From Ignavibacteriales bacterium (GTDB lineage Bacteria; Bacteroidota; Ignavibacteria; Ignavibacteriales; DAOSCP01), in NCBI GenBank assembly GCA_035379625.1, contig DAOSVM010000003.1, positions 334 to 64,333 of the forward strand: 64,000 nucleotides of DNA, written 5' to 3'. The notes under the pieces were generated by a model that saw only the letters and a program-made list of their open reading frames with translations, ran no database searches and was not told the DNA's origin. Made by a program: the position numbers and the translations under genes. Each line of letters begins with the position of its first letter. The stretch's first letter is position 1. Positions 15,059 to 52,684 of the stretch are shown one piece after another.

Positions 15059-16021
15059 ATGAAAGAAAAGTTAATTTATGTTGCAGGTCACAGTGGAATG
15101 GTAGGCTCTGCCGTTGTAAGAAAACTTAAAGATGCTGGTTACAATAATTTATTAGCCATTCCCCACAGTAAATTAGACCTAACTGATCAATTTGCTGTTA
15201 GAGAATTTTTTAAGAAGAATAAACCTGATATCGTTATTGTAGCTGCTGCAAGAGTTGGAGGTATTTTAGCGAACAATACTTATCGTTCTGAGTTTCTTTA
15301 TGAAAATTTAATGATTGAAACCAATATAATTAATTCTGCATTTCGCACAAAAGTTGAAAAATTAATTTTTTTGGGCAGTTCGTGCATTTATCCTAAATTA
15401 GCTGCTCAACCACTAAAAGAAGAATATCTCCTTTCAGGTTATTTAGAACCTACAAATGAACCATATGCAATTGCTAAAATAGCTGGAATTAAATATTGTG
15501 AAGCCTTATACCAACAACACAAAGCAAATTTTTATTCTTTAATGCCAACAAATTTATATGGGCCAAACGATAATTTCAATTTAGATACATCTCATGTATT
15601 ACCTGCTTTAATAAGGAAATTTCATTCTGCGAAAATAGGTGAATATTCAAAAGTTATTGTATGGGGAACTGGTAATCCACTTCGTGAATTTCTTTATGTA
15701 GATGATTTAGCAGAAGCTATTGTATTCTGTATGGAGAACGTTAATGCTGAAGATATATATTCAAGGAATATATCACATTTAAATGTTGGAACAGGTACAG
15801 ATATAAGTATTCGTGAATTAGCTTATTTAGTCGCAGATGTCCTTGATTATAAAGGGCATATTGAATTTGATAATACAAAACCTGACGGTACACCACGTAA
15901 ATTGCTTGATGTTTCTAGAATAAATAAATTAGGTTGGAAGCATAAAACCGATTTAAGAACTGGTATTGAAATGACTTATAATTGGTTTGTTGAGAACTAT
16001 AATAATTTAACTAAATTATAA
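15059..16021 (+). CDS. fcl: GDP-L-fucose synthase (GDP-4-keto-6-deoxy-D-mannose 3,5-epimerase/4-reductase)
   Basis: NAD(P) motif VAGHSGMVGSA, the SSCIYP and YAIAK catalytic motifs, and typical length. The ATG at 15059 is preferred over the TTG at 15047. Confidence 0.9.
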   Translation: MKEKLIYVAGHSGMVGSAVVRKLKDAGYNNLLAIPHSKLDLTDQFAVREFFKKNKPDIVIVAAARVGGILANNTYRSEFLYENLMIETNIINSAFRTKVEKLIFLGSSCIYPKLAAQPLKEEYLLSGYLEPTNEPYAIAKIAGIKYCEALYQQHKANFYSLMPTNLYGPNDNFNLDTSHVLPALIRKFHSAKIGEYSKVIVWGTGNPLREFLYVDDLAEAIVFCMENVNAEDIYSRNISHLNVGTGTDISIRELAYLVADVLDYKGHIEFDNTKPDGTPRKLLDVSRINKLGWKHKTDLRTGIEMTYNWFVENYNNLTKL

Positions 16022-16394
16022 AATTTATTTTATTGTTTTTACACCAATTTACTAATATAGTTTTATATTCCAATTTTCTAAATTCTTCCCAGTCTTCTAA
16101 AACATTATATTTTTTTAGAATGCTGGGAATATTTTTTTTATTACCATTTAATTTAATTTCATTTCGAATTATATTTTCTGTAGTTTCATCAAGATAACGT
16201 AGGAATTTTTCAAATATTAAATTTTCATTCAAATCTGTTCTATCGGGTAATGTAATGTAATGTTCGGGATGACTTAAAAATTCATTGGATTTTCCTTTTA
16301 CTATATGATAAGTTTTTAAGTTTAAATAGAGGGGTTGCTCACTATGATTTATAAGAGTATCTGTTAGGTAAGATATTTCAATTTGAGTTTTCAT
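16011..16394 (-). CDS. Hypothetical protein
   Basis: 127-aa ORF with coding-like composition next to a very AT-rich upstream region. No family recognised. Confidence 0.5.
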   Translation of the reverse strand: MKTQIEISYLTDTLINHSEQPLYLNLKTYHIVKGKSNEFLSHPEHYITLPDRTDLNENLIFEKFLRYLDETTENIIRNEIKLNGNKKNIPSILKKYNVLEDWEEFRKLEYKTILVNWCKNNKINFII

Positions 16395-16715: not shown

Positions 16716-16737
16716 CATGCTTATACTGTCCGAGCTA
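16716..16737. repeat. Solo terminal-repeat copy of the TAGCTCAGAC...TAAGCTTA element family
   Basis: catgcttatactgtccgagcta matches the right terminal repeat of copy A (24103-24124) at 19 of 22 positions. As in copies A and B, an A-run and a terminator hairpin follow it. Confidence 0.7.
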
Positions 16738-16744
16738 AATAGAA

Positions 16745-16773
16745 ATAAAAAAAGCTGCCTTTTTAAGACAGCC
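16745..16773 (-). terminator. Rho-independent terminator of queD
   Basis: On the minus strand there is a 7-bp stem, GCUGUCU/AGGCAGC (one G-U pair), with loop UAAAA and a following U8 run, immediately after the queD stop codon. Confidence 0.7.
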
Positions 16774-16779
16774 TATTTT

Positions 16780-23588: not shown

Positions 23589-24124
23589 TAGCTCAGACGG
23601 TGTAAGCTTAAAGCTCGTGCGCACGAAGGCGCACGGGCAGGCTAACGCCAAAAATATGGTAGATTAATTAAAGCATATCTTACATAATATCAACGACATA
23701 CAACATTTATGCATCTACCTAAATAACTATTTATTAAAAATTTTCCAAAGTAATACCAAACTTTAATAATATTAAAATATTTTCGGGATTACAATATAAT
23801 TGTATTTTCGATATATTCACTTGTTCTAAAAATATATTTGTATTTGCAATATAATTGTATATATGATATATCGGCAATTATCAATAATATATTTGTAAAT
23901 ACAATATAATTGTTTTACGATATAATAGAAAATGCAATTATATTACAAAAATAATTGTATCAATTTTAAGCTGCCACGCATTTAAGAAAAATTAGAATAT
24001 TAAGGCCTCAAAGCACCGCTATTTGTAAGGTGTCTAAGAGAAGAGTTTTGCGGGCCGTTCCGGCCCGCTGCCCCTTGCGGCATGACGAATGCCGCAAGGG
24101 GCTAAGCTTATACTGTCTGAGCTA
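23589..24124. repeat. Copy A of a composite intergenic element (22-nt terminal inverted repeats, three GC-rich hairpins, 55-bp phased AT repeats); MITE/BIME/inverton-like, unclassified
   Basis: Terminal inverted repeats are TAGCTCAGACGGTGTAAGCTTA (23589-23610) and the reverse complement of 24103-24124. Hairpins lie at 23613-23638, 24050-24068 and 24070-24102. A second copy is at 48787-49525. There is no credible ORF. Confidence 0.85.
23791..23913. repeat. Three 55-bp-phased repeats, each carrying the palindrome (A/G)CAAT-ATA-ATTGT
   Basis: The palindrome starts at 23791, 23846 and 23901, exactly 55 bp apart. TATATTTG (TAnnTTTG-like) lies at 23833-23840 and 23888-23895, also 55 bp apart. Confidence 0.8.
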
Positions 24125-24143: not shown

Positions 24144-24182
24144 AAAATAAAAAAAGGCAAGCTCGCTTTTTGCTCGCCTGCC
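24144..24182 (-). terminator. Rho-independent terminator of sdhB
   Basis: On the minus strand the stem is GGCAGGC/GCUUGCC (one G-U pair), followed by a U-rich run, about 30 nt after the sdhB stop. Confidence 0.65.
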
Positions 24183-41306: not shown

Positions 41307-41332
41307 AAAAAAGGCAAAACTGCCTTTTTTTT
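41304..41332. terminator. Weak bidirectional terminator between marR-like gene and SDR gene
   Basis: A8 - AGGCA AAAC TGCCT - T8 between convergent genes. The stem is only 5 bp. Confidence 0.45.
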
Positions 41333-47156: not shown

Positions 47157-47187
47157 TTTTATCAAATATAAAATTAATCAATATTAA

Positions 47188-47218
47188 AGCTGTCATTTAC
47201 GACAGCTTTTTATTTTTT
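47188..47218 (+). terminator. Rho-independent terminator of the TPR gene
   Basis: AGCTGTC/GACAGCT 7-bp stem, loop ATTTAC, then a T-rich run. Confidence 0.8.
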
Positions 47219-47267: not shown

Positions 47268-48746
47268 ATGAATATCTTAAGAAAAAAAACAATAGAACAA
47301 TCAATAGCCGAAACAGAAGGTAAACATCAGTTAAAAAAAGTATTAGGCCCATGGGCGTTAATTAGTTTTGGTATTGGTTGTATAATTGGTACTGGTATTT
47401 TTGTTTTAACAGGTATCGCTGCTCACGATAAAGCTGGCCCTGCTCTTATTTTATCCTTTGTTCTTGCTGGTATTGTAACAATAATTTCTGCTCTTTGCTA
47501 TGCAGAGTTTGCATCAATGGTACCTGTTGCTGGTTCAACCTACTCATATTCTTATATTACTTTAGGGGAATTATTCGCATGGATTATCGGTTGGGATTTA
47601 ATTTTAGAATACACTGTTGCAGCAGCTGCTGTAGCTCACGGATGGTCTCATTATTTACAAAACTTACTAGCATTATTCAAAATCAATTTCCCATCTTTCT
47701 TAAGTAAAGCCCCTTTCGACTTGGATATTAATACCGGCCAAATGATTTTTACTGGTTCTTATTTCGACCTTCTTTCAGTTTTGATCATTACTACTCTTAG
47801 TATTATTCTTATTCGTGGAATGAAAGAATCCTCTAAATTAAACAATATTATGGTTATTGTTAAATTAGCTATTATTTTGCTTGTTATTTTTGTTGGCGCT
47901 TTTTACATAGATTTTAATAATTATTTCCCGTTCGCTCCTTTCGGATATGGCGGTATTTCTATTTTTGGAAAAACAATTTGGGGCAGTGTCGATGGCGCTG
48001 GCCAGCCCGTCGGAGTTATCGCAGGCGCTGCAATAGCTTTTTTCGCATACATCGGTTTTGATGCCGTTTCCACTAGCGCCGAAGAAACCAAAAATCCTGC
48101 GCGTGATCTCCCCTTCGGAATTATCGGATCATTACTCATAAGTACAATTTTATACATCGCTGTTACTGCTGTTTTAACAGGTATGGTAAAATACAACCAA
48201 ATCGATTTAGATGCCCCTATTGCTAAAGCTTTCGAAGCTCACGGCTTACACGGTATACAATTTATTATCGATATTGGCGCTCTTACAGGTATAACATCAG
48301 TAATTTTAGTCTTATTAATTGGGCAAACAAGAATATTTTTCGCTATGTCTCGTGATGGCTTATTACCCAAAAAACTTTTCAGCGAAGTTCATCCTAAATT
48401 CAAAACACCTTATAAATCAACAATATTAACAGGTTTAATTGTATCAATTTTAGCAGGATTTATACCTTTAAGAATTTTATCTGAACTAGTTAACATTGGC
48501 ACACTATTAGCCTTCGTAATAATTTCTGTAGCAATAATTGTATTAAGATATAAACTACCCAATATTCATAGACCTTTCAAAGTACCTTTTGGTATAACTC
48601 TACCTATATTAGGCGTCCTTTTCAATCTAATTTTAATGTTCTCATTACCAGTAGATAATTGGTTAAGACTTTTTGTATGGCTAGCAATAGGCTTAATCAT
48701 CTATTTCCTTTATGGTAGAAACCACAGCATTCTTAATAAACAATAA
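47268..48746 (+). CDS. APC-family amino acid permease (cationic amino acid transporter-like)
   Basis: About 12-14 TM segments and the signature FFAYIGFDAVSTSAEETKNPARDLP. AGGAG lies upstream of the ATG. Confidence 0.9.
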   Translation: MNILRKKTIEQSIAETEGKHQLKKVLGPWALISFGIGCIIGTGIFVLTGIAAHDKAGPALILSFVLAGIVTIISALCYAEFASMVPVAGSTYSYSYITLGELFAWIIGWDLILEYTVAAAAVAHGWSHYLQNLLALFKINFPSFLSKAPFDLDINTGQMIFTGSYFDLLSVLIITTLSIILIRGMKESSKLNNIMVIVKLAIILLVIFVGAFYIDFNNYFPFAPFGYGGISIFGKTIWGSVDGAGQPVGVIAGAAIAFFAYIGFDAVSTSAEETKNPARDLPFGIIGSLLISTILYIAVTAVLTGMVKYNQIDLDAPIAKAFEAHGLHGIQFIIDIGALTGITSVILVLLIGQTRIFFAMSRDGLLPKKLFSEVHPKFKTPYKSTILTGLIVSILAGFIPLRILSELVNIGTLLAFVIISVAIIVLRYKLPNIHRPFKVPFGITLPILGVLFNLILMFSLPVDNWLRLFVWLAIGLIIYFLYGRNHSILNKQ

Positions 48747-48754
48747 ATATTATT

Positions 48755-48780
48755 GCTCTCTTTCGAAGGGAGCTTTTTTT
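48755..48780 (+). terminator. Rho-independent terminator of the permease gene
   Basis: GCTCTCTT/AAGGGAGC stem (one G-U pair) followed by T7. It resembles the trxA terminator. Confidence 0.75.
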
Positions 48781-48786
48781 ATATAT

Positions 48787-49525
48787 TAGCTCAGACAGTA
48801 TAAGCTTAAGCCCCTTGCAGCTTGAAGAAAGCCGCAAGGGGCAGCGGGCCGGAACGGCCCGCTAAAATGATAAACCCTAACATAAGCAACACCTCAGATA
48901 CTCAGAAAGTTAAACCTAATATGTTATCGACTAAATAAAAATACAATTTTAAGATTACACAAATTCCAAAATTATTACTACAAAAAAGCAAACTCAAATT
49001 TACCATCTTCATAAACGTGCTTACCACTCCCCCGGGCAAAAAAATTGCTTCCGAAATGATAAAAATTATTTTTTTATTTTTATTTGCTGCTAAATTGTTA
49101 TTTCTGCTCTTTTTATAATTTTATTGTAATTAGAATTGTATCGTAAATACAATATCTTTGCCAATAATATATCGTATATACAATAATATAGTAAGAGCAA
49201 ATATATTTTTTGAAATTGCAATTATATCGTATATACAATAATATCGTGGATACAAATATTTTTTAAAGAACTACCAATATATCGTATTCGCAATTATTTT
49301 GTATGGCCTATTATATTGCAATAACGATATTTATTTACTCCCTTTTTACGTAAGCTAATTTTTCATAGAAAAATATTAAAACAACATTTAGTTATTTATT
49401 TAAATGTAAAAATATAAAACATATTGTTCAAATCTATTGAAAGGTCTTGGTGAAAATATTTTTGGGCGTCAGCCCGCCCGTGCGCCGCTCGGCGCACGGG
49501 CTTTATGCTTACACCGTCTGAGCTA
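48787..49525. repeat. Copy B of the composite intergenic element, interior inverted relative to copy A
   Basis: Terminal inverted repeats are TAGCTCAGACAGTATAAGCTTA (48787-48808) and the reverse complement of 49504-49525. Hairpins lie at 48810-48842, 48844-48862 and 49476-49501. The module order is the mirror image of copy A. Confidence 0.85.
49139..49296. repeat. Phased repeats with core TATCGTATATACAATA (three copies at exact 55-bp spacing plus one out of phase)
   Basis: ATCGTA(T/A)A... cores start at 49171, 49226 and 49281, 55 bp apart. A further one-mismatch copy starts at 49140. Confidence 0.8.
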
Positions 49526-49542: not shown

Positions 49543-49579
49543 AAAAATAAAAAAAGCAAGCTCGCTTACGCTCGCCTGC
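49543..49579 (-). terminator. Rho-independent terminator of the RND pump gene
   Basis: On the minus strand the stem is GCAGGC/GCUUGC (one G-U pair), followed by a U-rich run. By hand alignment it matches the sdhB terminator module at about 41 of 47 positions. Confidence 0.6.
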
Positions 49580-49600: not shown

Positions 49601-52600
49601 TTATTTGAAATACCTTGCCCTAATTTTATCAACTGTATTGTAAACAATCGGAACAATAACTAATGTTAAAAATAATGAACTAGTCAATCCACCAACCAAA
49701 ACCATTCCTAAGCCTGATTTTGCCTCACTACCTGCTGATGTAGATAAAGCTATTGGTAACATGCCAAAAACTAAAGAGAAAGTAGTCATCAAAATTGGTC
49801 TTAATCTTGTTTTACCTGCTTCAAGCAAAGCATCAAATGTTGGCATATTATGTTCAATTTTCATTTGGTTTGTTCTATCAACAAGTAATATTGCGTTTTT
49901 AGCCACTAATCCTACAAGAGTAATAATGCCAATCATCGAATATATACCTATACTCTTCATAGAAAGAGCTAATGCCAAAAATGCACCAACAGCCGCCAAT
50001 GGTATTGAAAATAGCACAACAAATGGATAAATATATGAATTATATAAAGCAACCATAATTAAATACACAAACAAAATTCCGCCTGCCAATGCGTATAGTA
50101 AACTACGCATAGAATCAGCTAGATTTTTTTGCTCACCTGTAAATTCATATGTAATATCACCAGGGAATTGAATTTGTTTAACTCTCTTAATTATTTCTTG
50201 AGCAACAACACCGCTTGATTTCCCAAAAACATTTGAACTAATAGTCACTGATGCAATTCTATCATATCTTTCCAATTTTGATGGACCAGTAGTAATCCAA
50301 ATATTGGCCACTTGTTGCAATTCAACCGGTTTCCCAAGTTGATTTATAATTGTAAATCTTTTAATATCTTCAGGTTTAAATTTATCGAAATTATCTAGTG
50401 CTATCTTTAAATTATAATCCGTACCATTGATTGTGTATTTTGCTTCATCATCACCAGTTAAAGCAATTCTTAAATTTTGAGATATTTCACCAATTGTAAG
50501 TTTATATTGCGCTAGTTTATCTCTTTGAATATCGATATTCAATTCTGGATTTCCATCCTCAGTAGATAAACGTACATCACTTGTACCTTCAACCTGCTGT
50601 GCAATATCAACAATTTTTTTAGCAGCTTCTAACACTTGTGAATAATTTGTCCCCTTAACTAATATCTCAATTGGTGACCTATTAGATGTACCAAACAAAC
50701 CAACTGGCGCTACTCTTACTTTAATACCAGGGAAAACAGCCAATTTTAGCTTTATATCTTGAGCCAAATCATCAGAAGATTGTGATCTTTCTTTTTTATC
50801 AACTAATGAAACCAGAACTTCAGCCGTATTAGTCTTGGAAAAAGTCAACAATGCTCCGCCACTTGCTCCAACATTTGTAATAATTTTATTTACTTCTGGA
50901 ATTTTGCGCAATTCGTTTTCAATTATTTGGACTTGTCTATTTGTCTCTTCTATTGTAACACCTGGTTGTAATTCAACTGTAACAATAATTTCCCCTCTAT
51001 CAACAGGTGGGAAAAATTCAAATCCAATAAACCCTAATGGAAATAACATAAACGATGCCAATGTAATAATAACCACAAATGTTGCAACTTTTTTGGGGCT
51101 CCTTAATGCCCAGGATAAAATTTTTTGATATAAAACTTCAAAACGTTTAAATTGATTTTCAAACCAAATTGCAAATCTTCCTAAAAAACTTTTGGCATCA
51201 AAATGCTCAAGTTTAGAAAATCGTGATGCTAAAGTAGGTGTAACAGTAAAGGAAACAAATAAACTCATCAAAGTCGAAAAAACAACTACTAAAGCATAGT
51301 GTCTTAAGCAGTTTCCTATAATATCGGTAATTAGTGCCAATGGTACAAAAACTACTACATCTACAAGTGTTATAGATAAAGCTGCAAAACCTATTTCGTT
51401 TCTACCTTTTAACGCTGCCTCACGTTGATCTTCCCCCATCTCTAAATGTCTATGTATATTTTCAAGAACTACAATTGAATCATCCACCAAAATACCAATT
51501 ACCAAAGACATTGCTAATAATGTAATGTTATTCAATGTAAAATCGAATAAATACATTAAGAAAAATGTTGAAATTAATGAAGTAGGAATTGATACCAACA
51601 CAATAAAAGAATTTCTAATACTATGTAAAAAGAAAAACATAACTATAGCTACAAGAATAACAGCCATAAATAAATCAAATTTAACAGCATTAGCAGAATC
51701 AATAATAAAAGTAGATGCATCTTGAGCAATTGTAAATTTTAATCCAACGTTTTTATACTCTTCTTCAAGCTTTATAATTTCCTTTTTAATTTCATTACTG
51801 ACCTCTACCGTATTCCCATCAGATTGTTTAACAACCAGCATACCAATTGCTGTATTTCCATTTAACCTATAAACATTTGATAAATCAATACTTCCGTCAG
51901 ATACATCAGCAATATCCTTTATTTTAATATCACCACCTTGTTTTGATTTACCAATTATTTGTTCTTTTATAGTATTAATATTATCAAATTTCCCTGCAAC
52001 TCTTACAACATATTGATTATCATAGCCTTTTATATTTCCTGTTGGGAAATCCAAGTTCTGATTTTTAATAATCTGCGTAACATTGAAAAGATTTAAATTA
52101 TATGCTTTTAACTTATCTGCATTTACATTTATTTTTATTTCTCTTTCATTGGCACCAATAAGAGAAACTAAACCAACTCCTTTTAGTTTAGTAAATCTTG
52201 GTTGAATTTTATCTTTAATAAACTGCGTAAATTCTTTTTCATCCAAATTAGAATTTAAAGTCAATCTTAAAACAGGAATCTCATCAAACGATATTTTAGA
52301 TATTACCGGTTGTTTTGCAGTTGAAGGAAGTTCATTCAATATTTGGTTAATTTTTCTCTGTGCTTCCTGGAGTGATTTATCTATATCTGCATCCATATCA
52401 AATTCCACAACAACTAAAGAAAAACCCTCCGATGATGTTGAACGTATTGCAGAAATTTTTTCTATTCCAGTTATAGCATCCTCAATAACTTTTGTAACCG
52501 AATTTTCAACCGAGTTTGGGGAACCACCCGGATAAACTGTTTGTATTGTTATTACCGGTGCTGTTAACTTCGGTAATAAATCATAATTTAGTTGTAGATA

Positions 52601-52684
52601 TCCATAAATACCCAATACCGATAAAACTGAAAATATAACTACAACTATTGTTGGCCTTTTTATTGAAAGTTCTGTTATTGTCAT
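49601..52684 (-). CDS. RND-family multidrug efflux permease (HAE1, AcrB-like)
   Basis: 1027 aa with 12-TM topology and two large periplasmic loops; AcrB-type N-terminus (ELSIKRPT). Confidence 0.95.
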   Translation of the reverse strand: MTITELSIKRPTIVVVIFSVLSVLGIYGYLQLNYDLLPKLTAPVITIQTVYPGGSPNSVENSVTKVIEDAITGIEKISAIRSTSSEGFSLVVVEFDMDADIDKSLQEAQRKINQILNELPSTAKQPVISKISFDEIPVLRLTLNSNLDEKEFTQFIKDKIQPRFTKLKGVGLVSLIGANEREIKINVNADKLKAYNLNLFNVTQIIKNQNLDFPTGNIKGYDNQYVVRVAGKFDNINTIKEQIIGKSKQGGDIKIKDIADVSDGSIDLSNVYRLNGNTAIGMLVVKQSDGNTVEVSNEIKKEIIKLEEEYKNVGLKFTIAQDASTFIIDSANAVKFDLFMAVILVAIVMFFFLHSIRNSFIVLVSIPTSLISTFFLMYLFDFTLNNITLLAMSLVIGILVDDSIVVLENIHRHLEMGEDQREAALKGRNEIGFAALSITLVDVVVFVPLALITDIIGNCLRHYALVVVFSTLMSLFVSFTVTPTLASRFSKLEHFDAKSFLGRFAIWFENQFKRFEVLYQKILSWALRSPKKVATFVVIITLASFMLFPLGFIGFEFFPPVDRGEIIVTVELQPGVTIEETNRQVQIIENELRKIPEVNKIITNVGASGGALLTFSKTNTAEVLVSLVDKKERSQSSDDLAQDIKLKLAVFPGIKVRVAPVGLFGTSNRSPIEILVKGTNYSQVLEAAKKIVDIAQQVEGTSDVRLSTEDGNPELNIDIQRDKLAQYKLTIGEISQNLRIALTGDDEAKYTINGTDYNLKIALDNFDKFKPEDIKRFTIINQLGKPVELQQVANIWITTGPSKLERYDRIASVTISSNVFGKSSGVVAQEIIKRVKQIQFPGDITYEFTGEQKNLADSMRSLLYALAGGILFVYLIMVALYNSYIYPFVVLFSIPLAAVGAFLALALSMKSIGIYSMIGIITLVGLVAKNAILLVDRTNQMKIEHNMPTFDALLEAGKTRLRPILMTTFSLVFGMLPIALSTSAGSEAKSGLGMVLVGGLTSSLFLTLVIVPIVYNTVDKIRARYFK

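Follow-up and report, generated by a model that had tools for sequence, protein, structure and literature searches.

Copy B, a probable member of a high-copy, non-autonomous repeat family of Ignavibacteriales with paired end hairpins and an internal palindrome array

The 739-bp intergenic element at positions 48787-49525 of a 64,000-nucleotide stretch of Ignavibacteriales DNA (GenBank assembly GCA_035379625.1, contig DAOSVM010000003.1, positions 334 to 64,333 of the forward strand; referred to here as the window) is probably a member of a high-copy, non-autonomous mobile family bounded by terminal inverted repeats (TIRs), of the kind of MITEs (miniature transposable elements with inverted repeats) or mobile insertion cassettes (MICs). 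As the elements encode no enzyme, they would be moved in trans. The element, termed copy B in the following, is the second copy of an element at 23589-24124 on the minus strand (copy A), which represents a different arm subfamily of the same family and has the opposite internal orientation. It is flanked by an amino-acid permease gene (47268-48746, plus strand) and an AcrB-type resistance-nodulation-division (RND) pump gene (49601-52684, minus strand). An earlier description made from the letters of the window, hereafter the sequence-only reading, knew these two copies; the family in fact comprises at least 69 distinct short copies plus longer, gene-carrying forms, and the puzzle of two copies thus resolves into a dispersed repeat family.

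The size of the family became apparent from a metagenome scan with the 22-nt repeat as query, which yielded at least 104 stretches (1.1 Mb), mostly from two sets of bioreactor-type contigs. In this DNA, at least 73 inward-facing TIR pairs lie less than 1 kb apart, of which at least 69 are distinct, with lengths of 151-805 bp. Another Ignavibacteriales metagenome-assembled genome (MAG), found in a scan of genome collections, holds one full copy (L008) and one solo end (L001), and the interior of copy A is closely similar to the copy in that genome. Within the window, the TIR pattern has five matches, compared to none in 100 shuffles, namely both ends of each of copies A and B plus one solo end, corresponding to two full copies and one solo end per 64 kb. 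No similar DNA was found in viral contigs, annotated plasmids or annotated phages, and no literature on MITEs of Ignavibacteria was found.

Further support for mobility comes from an orthologous site in a relative. In assembly GCA_020049655.1 (locus L126), the closest relative found to have this gene pair, genes with 84% (permease) and 78% (pump) identity are separated by 35 nt between the stop codons, and this intergenic region consists of one bidirectional terminator; the site of the element can hence be empty. Among the fetched loci, no empty allele was found.

Anatomy of copy B and its relatives

Copy B starts with the left TIR (TAGCTCAGACAGTATAAGCTTAA, A/A variant, plus strand) at 48787-48809, followed by the GC-rich hairpin H1 at 48810-48842 (arms 48810-48823 and 48829-48842; 14-bp stem with one A-C mismatch, 5-nt loop) and the hairpin H2 at 48843-48863 (AGCGGGCCG-GAA-CGGCCCGCT, 8-9 bp stem). 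An AT-rich, subfamily-specific module (48866-49110) leads to an array of 12-bp palindromes of the form T[TC]GTAnnTAC[AG]A (49115-49325), which are paired 17 bp apart with a super-period of 55 bp; exact palindromes stand at 49141-49152, 49172-49183 and 49227-49238, with degenerate ones between them, and repeats of the TATCGTATATACAATA type recur with a 55-bp period at 49166-49317. The AT-rich right arm (49326-49463) includes the palindromic block CATTTAGTTATTTATTTAAATG at 49385-49406. It is followed by the small hairpin H4 (GGGC-GTCA-GCCC, 49464-49475), the hairpin H3 on the plus strand with a perfect 12-bp GC stem (49476-49501; arms 49476-49487 and 49490-49501) and then TTTATGCTT, and finally the right TIR (G/G variant, 49503-49525, minus strand). 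Outside the element, the intrinsic terminator of the permease gene (48755-48779, plus strand) lies 6 nt from the left TIR, and a terminator-like hairpin GCAGGCGAGCGTAAGCGAGCTTGC with a T-run, present as a single copy in the window, follows the RND pump gene (49548-49579, minus strand).

This map agrees within a few bases with the sequence-only reading, which had described copy B as a longer, mirror-inverted copy of the element of copy A between convergent genes. The right-hand stem it had noted at 49476-49501 is present and measures 12 rather than 10 bp, and its four repeats at 49139-49296 correspond to the TATCGTATATACAATA-type repeats, mapped here at 49166-49317. The reversed module order was confirmed. 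In the alignment it had proposed, that of copy B with copy A read as its reverse complement, near-identity covers ~83 nt at the start and ~70 nt at the end, the centre reaches ~75%, and copy B carries an insertion after H2 (48866-49110). Near-identity had been claimed for the first ~80 nt, apart from a hairpin loop and adjacent stem positions; the differences lie in the H1 loop, the adjacent stem positions and, additionally, one stem base and a 1-nt indel.

Alignment of 181 distinct ends gave the TIR logo T-A-G-C-T-C-A/g-G-A-C-R-G-T-R-T-A-A-G-C-W-T-A. The repeat is 19-23 nt long, and positions 3-19 are conserved to 95-100% except for A/G at positions 7, 11 and 14. The two R positions are found in all four combinations, and A/A and G/G are hence variants with no linkage between the positions. 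In itself, the 19-nt core forms an imperfect palindrome (AGCTYASAC-S-GTSTRAGCT), 14 of its 19 positions matching its own reverse complement.

Each TIR is followed immediately on its inner side by GC-rich hairpins, one or two in number, which belong to several interchangeable types. Across 58 copies, 96.4% of the H1/H2 cells are paired (95% for H2 alone) and 37 cells are changed on both sides, values reached by none of 500 shuffles. Covariation in H1 is e.g., seen at pair 34-48 (AU in 33 copies, GC in 24) and pair 37-45 (UA in 47, AU in 8); the sole sequence mismatched at pair 34-48 is copy B. The pairing of the hairpins is thus under constraint though their sequence varies. As single-stranded DNA, the ends of copy B also fold better than shuffled sequences (z = -6.4 and -4.0), as does the H1/H2 end of copy A (z = -10.6).

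The palindrome of the array occurs 93 times in 28.9 kb of elements versus 40 times in the other ~950 kb, and most of these 40 sit within 450 nt of an unpaired or solo end, showing that the array is specific to the family. The palindrome cores and their TATAT flanks are conserved, the ~17-nt spacers between them are not. Together with the compensatory changes in H1, this upholds the earlier claim that ends and repeat cores are conserved. The array also holds sigma-70-like hexamers overlapping the palindromes. Judged from these motifs, it would most plausibly offer multiple sites to a DNA-binding protein that acts as a dimer, in overlap with promoter-like hexamers. A regulator carrying the palindrome in its own promoter was considered as a candidate and dropped, as the few isolated sites away from elements were uninformative.

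The claim of a freely drifting middle, in turn, did not hold. The family is a mosaic in which copies A and B represent different subfamilies, and the AT-rich arms, which sort into subfamilies, are common to many copies: the right arm of copy B is found in ~34 of them, and a 12-nt run of its palindromic block is invariant in 18 aligned copies. Likewise, the ~200 extra bp attributed to copy B do exist (~245 bp, 48866-49110), as a subfamily module rather than as drift. A search for this module, as the sequence-only reading had advised, located it at seven other loci (89% identity in L054; 73-79% in L050, L052, L067, L027, L035 and L085), always beside H2 inside an element wherever its position was readable; the window has no other copy. 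Differences were also seen in two same-locus comparisons. In the first pair, alleles of an otherwise identical locus (L019 334-830, 497 bp, versus L106 6943-7468, 526 bp), H2 is missing from one allele and ~50 nt were gained elsewhere, a gain of approximately one 55-bp array unit; in the second (L078 12098-12480, 383 bp, versus L079 9794-10114, 321 bp), the element differs in length. Hairpins and array units are unstable at the strain level. From copy to copy, arms, hairpins and array units have undergone swaps, losses and duplications, resulting in mosaic subfamilies, with copy B in a long one.

Two further observations concern this anatomy. In the copy-B subfamily, the motif TTATTTAG(Y) occurs in inverted orientation at 48925-48945 and 49385-49406, ~120-150 nt from each end, in the most conserved blocks of both arms; it is absent from the copy-A subfamily and may represent a second, subterminal pair of putative binding sites. 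Moreover, two facing repeat-like sequences 151 bp apart (L046 4286-4436) lie within an uninterrupted ORF (open reading frame) of 1213 aa encoding a PLD-SNF2 protein, which may be a minimal copy inserted in a coding region with the frame left open.

The conserved parts could also be read as those of a family of host genes encoding a small RNA, or of a cis-regulatory element, its copies being functional paralogues. Read outwards, both ends form a stable GC hairpin followed by a U-rich tail (H3 then TTTATGCTT, H1 then TTAAGCTTAT), and the invariant 12-nt run within 49385-49406 would fit a functional RNA. H3 with TTTATGCTT in particular looks like a terminator for transcripts that would leave the element rightwards. 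We nevertheless regard this reading as highly improbable. There is no Rfam match to the element at either threshold, as Rfam 15 gave 0 matches in the window at gathering thresholds and, when relaxed, chance-level hits on the flanking terminators alone; the only internal helix predicted outside the end hairpins lacks compensatory change; and the internal arms are interchangeable between subfamilies, while the site is empty in L126.

Insertion sites and mode of mobilization

The copies share no ORF of at least 40 aa. A 34-36 codon ORF in the extra module (four copies) was considered as a small protein and rejected as coding, with 12 of 22 substitutions at second codon positions and 14 non-synonymous versus 4 synonymous changes. 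When all ORFs of at least 120 aa in the 1.1 Mb were clustered, no recurrent transposase-like ORF emerged, and those that did recur were syntenic duplicates or paralogues of chemoreceptor-like type. For 20 ORFs beside solo or long-range ends, Pfam scans revealed defence and housekeeping genes only and no transposase.

Where genes could be called on both sides (58 copies), 28 elements lie between convergent, 25 between tandem and 5 between divergent genes, and 70% of the flanking gene ends are 3' ends. The last 8 flanking nucleotides are G-free and T-rich on both sides and at both end types, with symmetric profiles. In 68 of 183 distinct ends, an inward-pointing hairpin with a T-run lies 5-36 nt away, compared to none at 37-70 nt. 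Over its 64 kb, the window itself has some seven intrinsic terminators that are strong, and five of these abut a repeat end (the fifth, beside copy A, is mismatched and was read by eye); the remaining ones stand away from repeats at 41310-41327 (bidirectional) and 47186-47209. Since ordinary terminators occur about once per 6 kb at loci of relatives that lack the element, the flanking terminators are probably native. The elements either target terminators or survive only beside them, and the data fit both.

One of these flanking structures is itself repeated. The 24-nt terminator-like hairpin GCAGGCGAGCGTAAGCGAGCTTGC, followed by T7 and ATTTTAAAAAA..TCTTCAT, is located at 49556-49579, with a variant at ~24155-24181 and further loci such as L073 11657-11680. 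Of its 26 copies in the 1.1 Mb, 24 stand 14-33 nt outside a TIR, on either internal side and in two distance classes, and the hairpin at the copy-B site resembles the native terminator of L126. It may be a preferred target, hitch-hiked flanking DNA or a second small repeat family. Flanking terminator hairpins as fixed, oriented parts of the element were rejected, as they occur on either internal side and are absent in 19 of 51 copies; the association of the GCAGGCGAGC-type hairpin with the TIR is nevertheless strong.

The surroundings of the copies also bear on the idea that they are invertons, promoter switches like those of Bacteroides that a master invertase turns over in place, with A and B as the two orientations. 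Inverted repeats do flank a promoter-like array, and copies A and B have the same flank types (GCTCTC-type hairpin left, GCAGGCGAGC-type right) around mutually inverted cores. This reading is, however, extremely improbable: the homology extends over the whole 300-800 bp across at least 69 loci and not over the repeats alone, the predominance of 3' ends and the few divergent contexts do not place the elements upstream of operons, and orientation relative to the downstream gene is random (10 versus 9). Moreover, none of ten same-locus pairs from different assemblies was inverted, in assemblies that give the majority orientation, and no invertase gene is nearby.

The proposed mobile family would work as follows. 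An enzyme acting in trans would recognize the TIR, probably together with the adjacent hairpin, and the element would land, or persist, in T-rich DNA lacking G just beyond the intrinsic terminators of gene 3' ends, with no detectable duplication of the target. The unit would then act as a self-contained, insulated cassette in which a predicted protein-binding or promoter array is combined with terminators, and any cargo would lie between the array and the H3-type end. Our leading guess for this enzyme is the transposase of a rare autonomous element missed by the scans.

Several observations weigh against mobilization of this kind. Target-site duplications of 2-9 bp showed no excess at any of 81 boundary offsets in 69 copies, and their absence is atypical for elements of DDE transposases and for MITEs. 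Positions 1-2 of the TIR are looser than positions 3-19, which is unusual for a transposase cleavage site. At least nine H1/H2-side ends at different loci carry a heritable GG in place of the terminal TA; as this variant is inherited, the first two bases belong to the element rather than to a TA duplication, and an IS630/Tc1-type TA duplication is ruled out. An autonomous partner with the same TIRs was found neither among the matches listed nor in the 1.1 Mb fetched. Close strains show no presence/absence difference at either window site, all strains of the species carrying both A and B; given this lack of strain polymorphism, the case for mobility is built on the number of copies and a single empty site, the latter in a relative of only ~80% identity. 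Finally, protein binding as well as the activity of promoters and terminators are predictions from the sequence.

A different kind of enzyme has to be considered here as well. At both ends, a conserved linear motif adjoins GC-rich hairpins that show compensatory changes; this, the missing target duplication, the mosaic make-up and the location at gene 3' ends and between convergent genes would all suit a large element of the REP/BIME/REPIN kind (repetitive extragenic palindromes and their mosaics). Its spread would be due to a RAYT-type enzyme, a domesticated Y1 (HUH) transposase with single-stranded hairpins as its substrate. We consider this very unlikely. The units measure 300-800 bp with a long AT-rich core, compared to ~35 nt for a REP and ~100 nt for a REPIN; the invariant part is a 19-nt linear repeat, the hairpins being interchangeable; and no Y1 gene was seen in the fetched DNA, which covers part of the genome. 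The flanks are symmetric and do not show the one-sided target motif of the IS200/IS605 type. The hairpins expected of a palindrome-associated element or REPIN derived from IS200/IS605 are present, but the strong TIR and the symmetric flanks speak against such an origin.

Long forms carrying genes

Apart from the short copies, the same ends bound longer units with genes, most of them for restriction or defence. In L032 (3752-5723), an orphan HsdS gene lies between the array and the H3-type end; exactly this protein is recorded from an Ignavibacteriales MAG, with an accession close to those of the window proteins. Another HsdS allele is found in L112, and a repeat protein of no assigned family in L095 (2442-4495). 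The largest unit, L046 (2144-11525, 9.4 kb, inward-facing ends), encodes a PLD-SNF2 helicase, a Schlafen/AlbA_2 protein, an Eco57I-like type IIG methylase and an S-adenosylmethionine-dependent methyltransferase. In L074 (6571-14081), a TdeIII restriction-modification pair next to the H3-type end is followed by a type I HsdR. L047 has GmrSD before its end and a type IIG methylase gene 99.8% identical to that of L046; the neighbours between this common gene and the H3-type end differ between the two islands.

In four of five long forms, the cargo reads towards the H3-type or hairpin-less end. By eye, a Bacteroidota-type -7 box (TAnnTTTG) is seen once per 55-bp array unit, on the strand facing the H1/H2 end; with the cargo on the other side in four of five forms, this box is no explanation of cargo expression. 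Many other solo ends adjoin ordinary housekeeping genes. The link of the family with defence genes is thus real, though not exclusive, and may in part stem from the tendency of mobile DNA in general to gather in defence islands.

An improbable but more novel interpretation is that the short copies represent the empty form of an undescribed cassette system. A putative enzyme would recognize the quasi-palindromic 19-nt end with its hairpin and insert the unit beside intrinsic terminators, with no duplication of the target. The unit would be insulated for expression, its operator/promoter array lying between terminators that face outwards, and could be loaded with defence genes (HsdS, type II/IIG restriction-modification, GmrSD), a vehicle lacking a transposase that would shuffle anti-phage genes in Ignavibacteriales genomes.

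The same units raise the question of site-specific recombination, in which the TIRs would be recombination sites, imperfect palindromes such as a recombinase dimer binds, and a tyrosine or serine recombinase with its gene at another place would exchange or integrate the units, similar to the dif modules of Acinetobacter plasmids or to gene cassettes. Consistent with this are the lack of target duplication, the loose terminal dinucleotide, the 14 of 19 self-complementary positions of the TIR core with AGCT ends that pair in the fold, and the many solo ends. Furthermore, common ends are found on units ranging from empty to 9.4 kb of defence genes, and the islands L046 and L047 combine a 99.8%-identical methylase gene with different genes before the H3-type end. 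On the other side, a recombinase gene adjoins no copy, and the two end sites are inverted, an arrangement in which recombination inverts the DNA and does not move it. The insertion sites have only AT-richness in common and contain no copy of the site, and the TIR appears unlike the XerC/D dif consensus. On balance, we hold such a recombinase system to be unlikely.

The solo end of the window at 16719-16737 (minus strand, TAGCTCGGACAGTATAAGCATGAT...) has no hairpins, and no partner end was found. It lies 14 nt from a minus-strand intrinsic terminator (16752-16774), and inward of it follow 300 nt of DNA very rich in AT and an ORF of 127 aa (16011-16394) that weakly matches UPF0158. Ends of this hairpin-less type also delimit the cargo form L095, and L098 has a solo one. 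A further likeness was noted between the terminal repeat and the 5' part of tRNAs (position 8 through the D-arm), where TAGCTCAGACGGTGTAAGC matches TAGCTCAGATGGTTAGAGC of a tRNA gene at 15 of 19 positions (L098 360-454, L114 4362-4456); this may be due to chance.

Significance and comparison with known elements

The family combines features not usually found together in bacterial MITEs: no target duplication, interchangeable paired hairpins, an internal array of palindromes resembling protein-binding sites, and ends shared with defence-gene units. If the mobilizing enzyme is found, it could prove to be an unusual transposase or recombinase favouring terminator-adjacent sites, and the family would then show how defence genes move within a little-studied phylum.

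The family is also of practical interest, as it fragments metagenome assemblies of the lineage. Contigs from several assemblies end in or at the element, as would be predicted for a dispersed repeat; around copies A and B, the short-read contigs L124, L131, L132, L133 and L135, which come from several samples, stop 18-120 nt from the flanking genes or inside the element. At about one copy per 15-30 kb, the family may account for a few per cent of the genome, and masking or modelling it is advised when Ignavibacteriales MAGs are binned or scaffolded.

With many dispersed copies, TIRs and no internal transposase gene, the family has several hallmarks of MITEs, but lacks the target duplication. 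Its short copies (151-805 bp; copy B, 739 bp) fall within the range of 50-1000 bp given in one definition (PMC4596501) and outside that of 30-300 bp given in another (PMC4133298). Because no duplication was found and no cognate insertion sequence (IS) is known, we describe the family as working like a MITE or MIC and not as a proven member of an IS-derived family.

Among short mosaic repeats, REP, BIME and REPIN elements share the GC-rich extragenic palindromes, the mosaic of modules, the preference for 3' ends and convergent genes, and the absence of target duplication, but they are far shorter and have neither an invariant linear terminal repeat nor an AT-rich array core. MICs are defined as passenger genes between two inverted repeats, without a transposase (PMC3913671). 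Examples are MIC231 of Bacillus cereus and the qnrD and qnrS2 mic elements, and the description fits the long forms L032 and L046, copy B itself being gene-free. However, the repeats of MICs are those of IS231, which moves them in trans, and a target duplication is usual; neither was found here. Tn3-derived miniature elements with inverted repeats (TIMEs) are 262 bp long, with 38-bp repeats and duplications of 5-6 bp, and their ends bound larger, mosaic, gene-carrying units (PMC4133298). The likeness lies in a short non-autonomous element whose ends also delimit larger mosaic units with captured genes, and in AT-rich targets, whereas the repeats of the present family are 19-23 nt long and unrelated in sequence, and no duplication is made.

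In architecture, the family most resembles BrickBuilt of Porphyromonas gingivalis, beside which the 464/PgRS elements with 41-nt repeats may also be listed. BrickBuilt is present in 19 copies with TIRs like those of ISPg1 (IS5 family) and contiguous 23-nt direct repeats (PMC4596501); it varies from 84 to 991 nt by repeat number, is strictly intergenic, occurs in partial forms and contains promoters that work either way (Klein et al. 2015, PMC4596501). Common to both are a host of the Bacteroidota/Ignavibacteria group, the lack of a transposase gene, and TIRs on leader and tail arms around an internal array, as well as length variation, intergenic location, and partial and solo forms. In the Ignavibacteriales family, in contrast, the array consists of 12-bp palindromes paired 17 bp apart, with spacers and a 55-bp period, at least 69 copies exist, and no cognate IS is known. 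Promoters in the repeat region were measured for BrickBuilt and are predicted for the family described here, which is further set apart by GC-rich, covarying hairpins adjacent to the TIRs, by its proximity to terminators and by its gene-carrying forms, features not reported for BrickBuilt.

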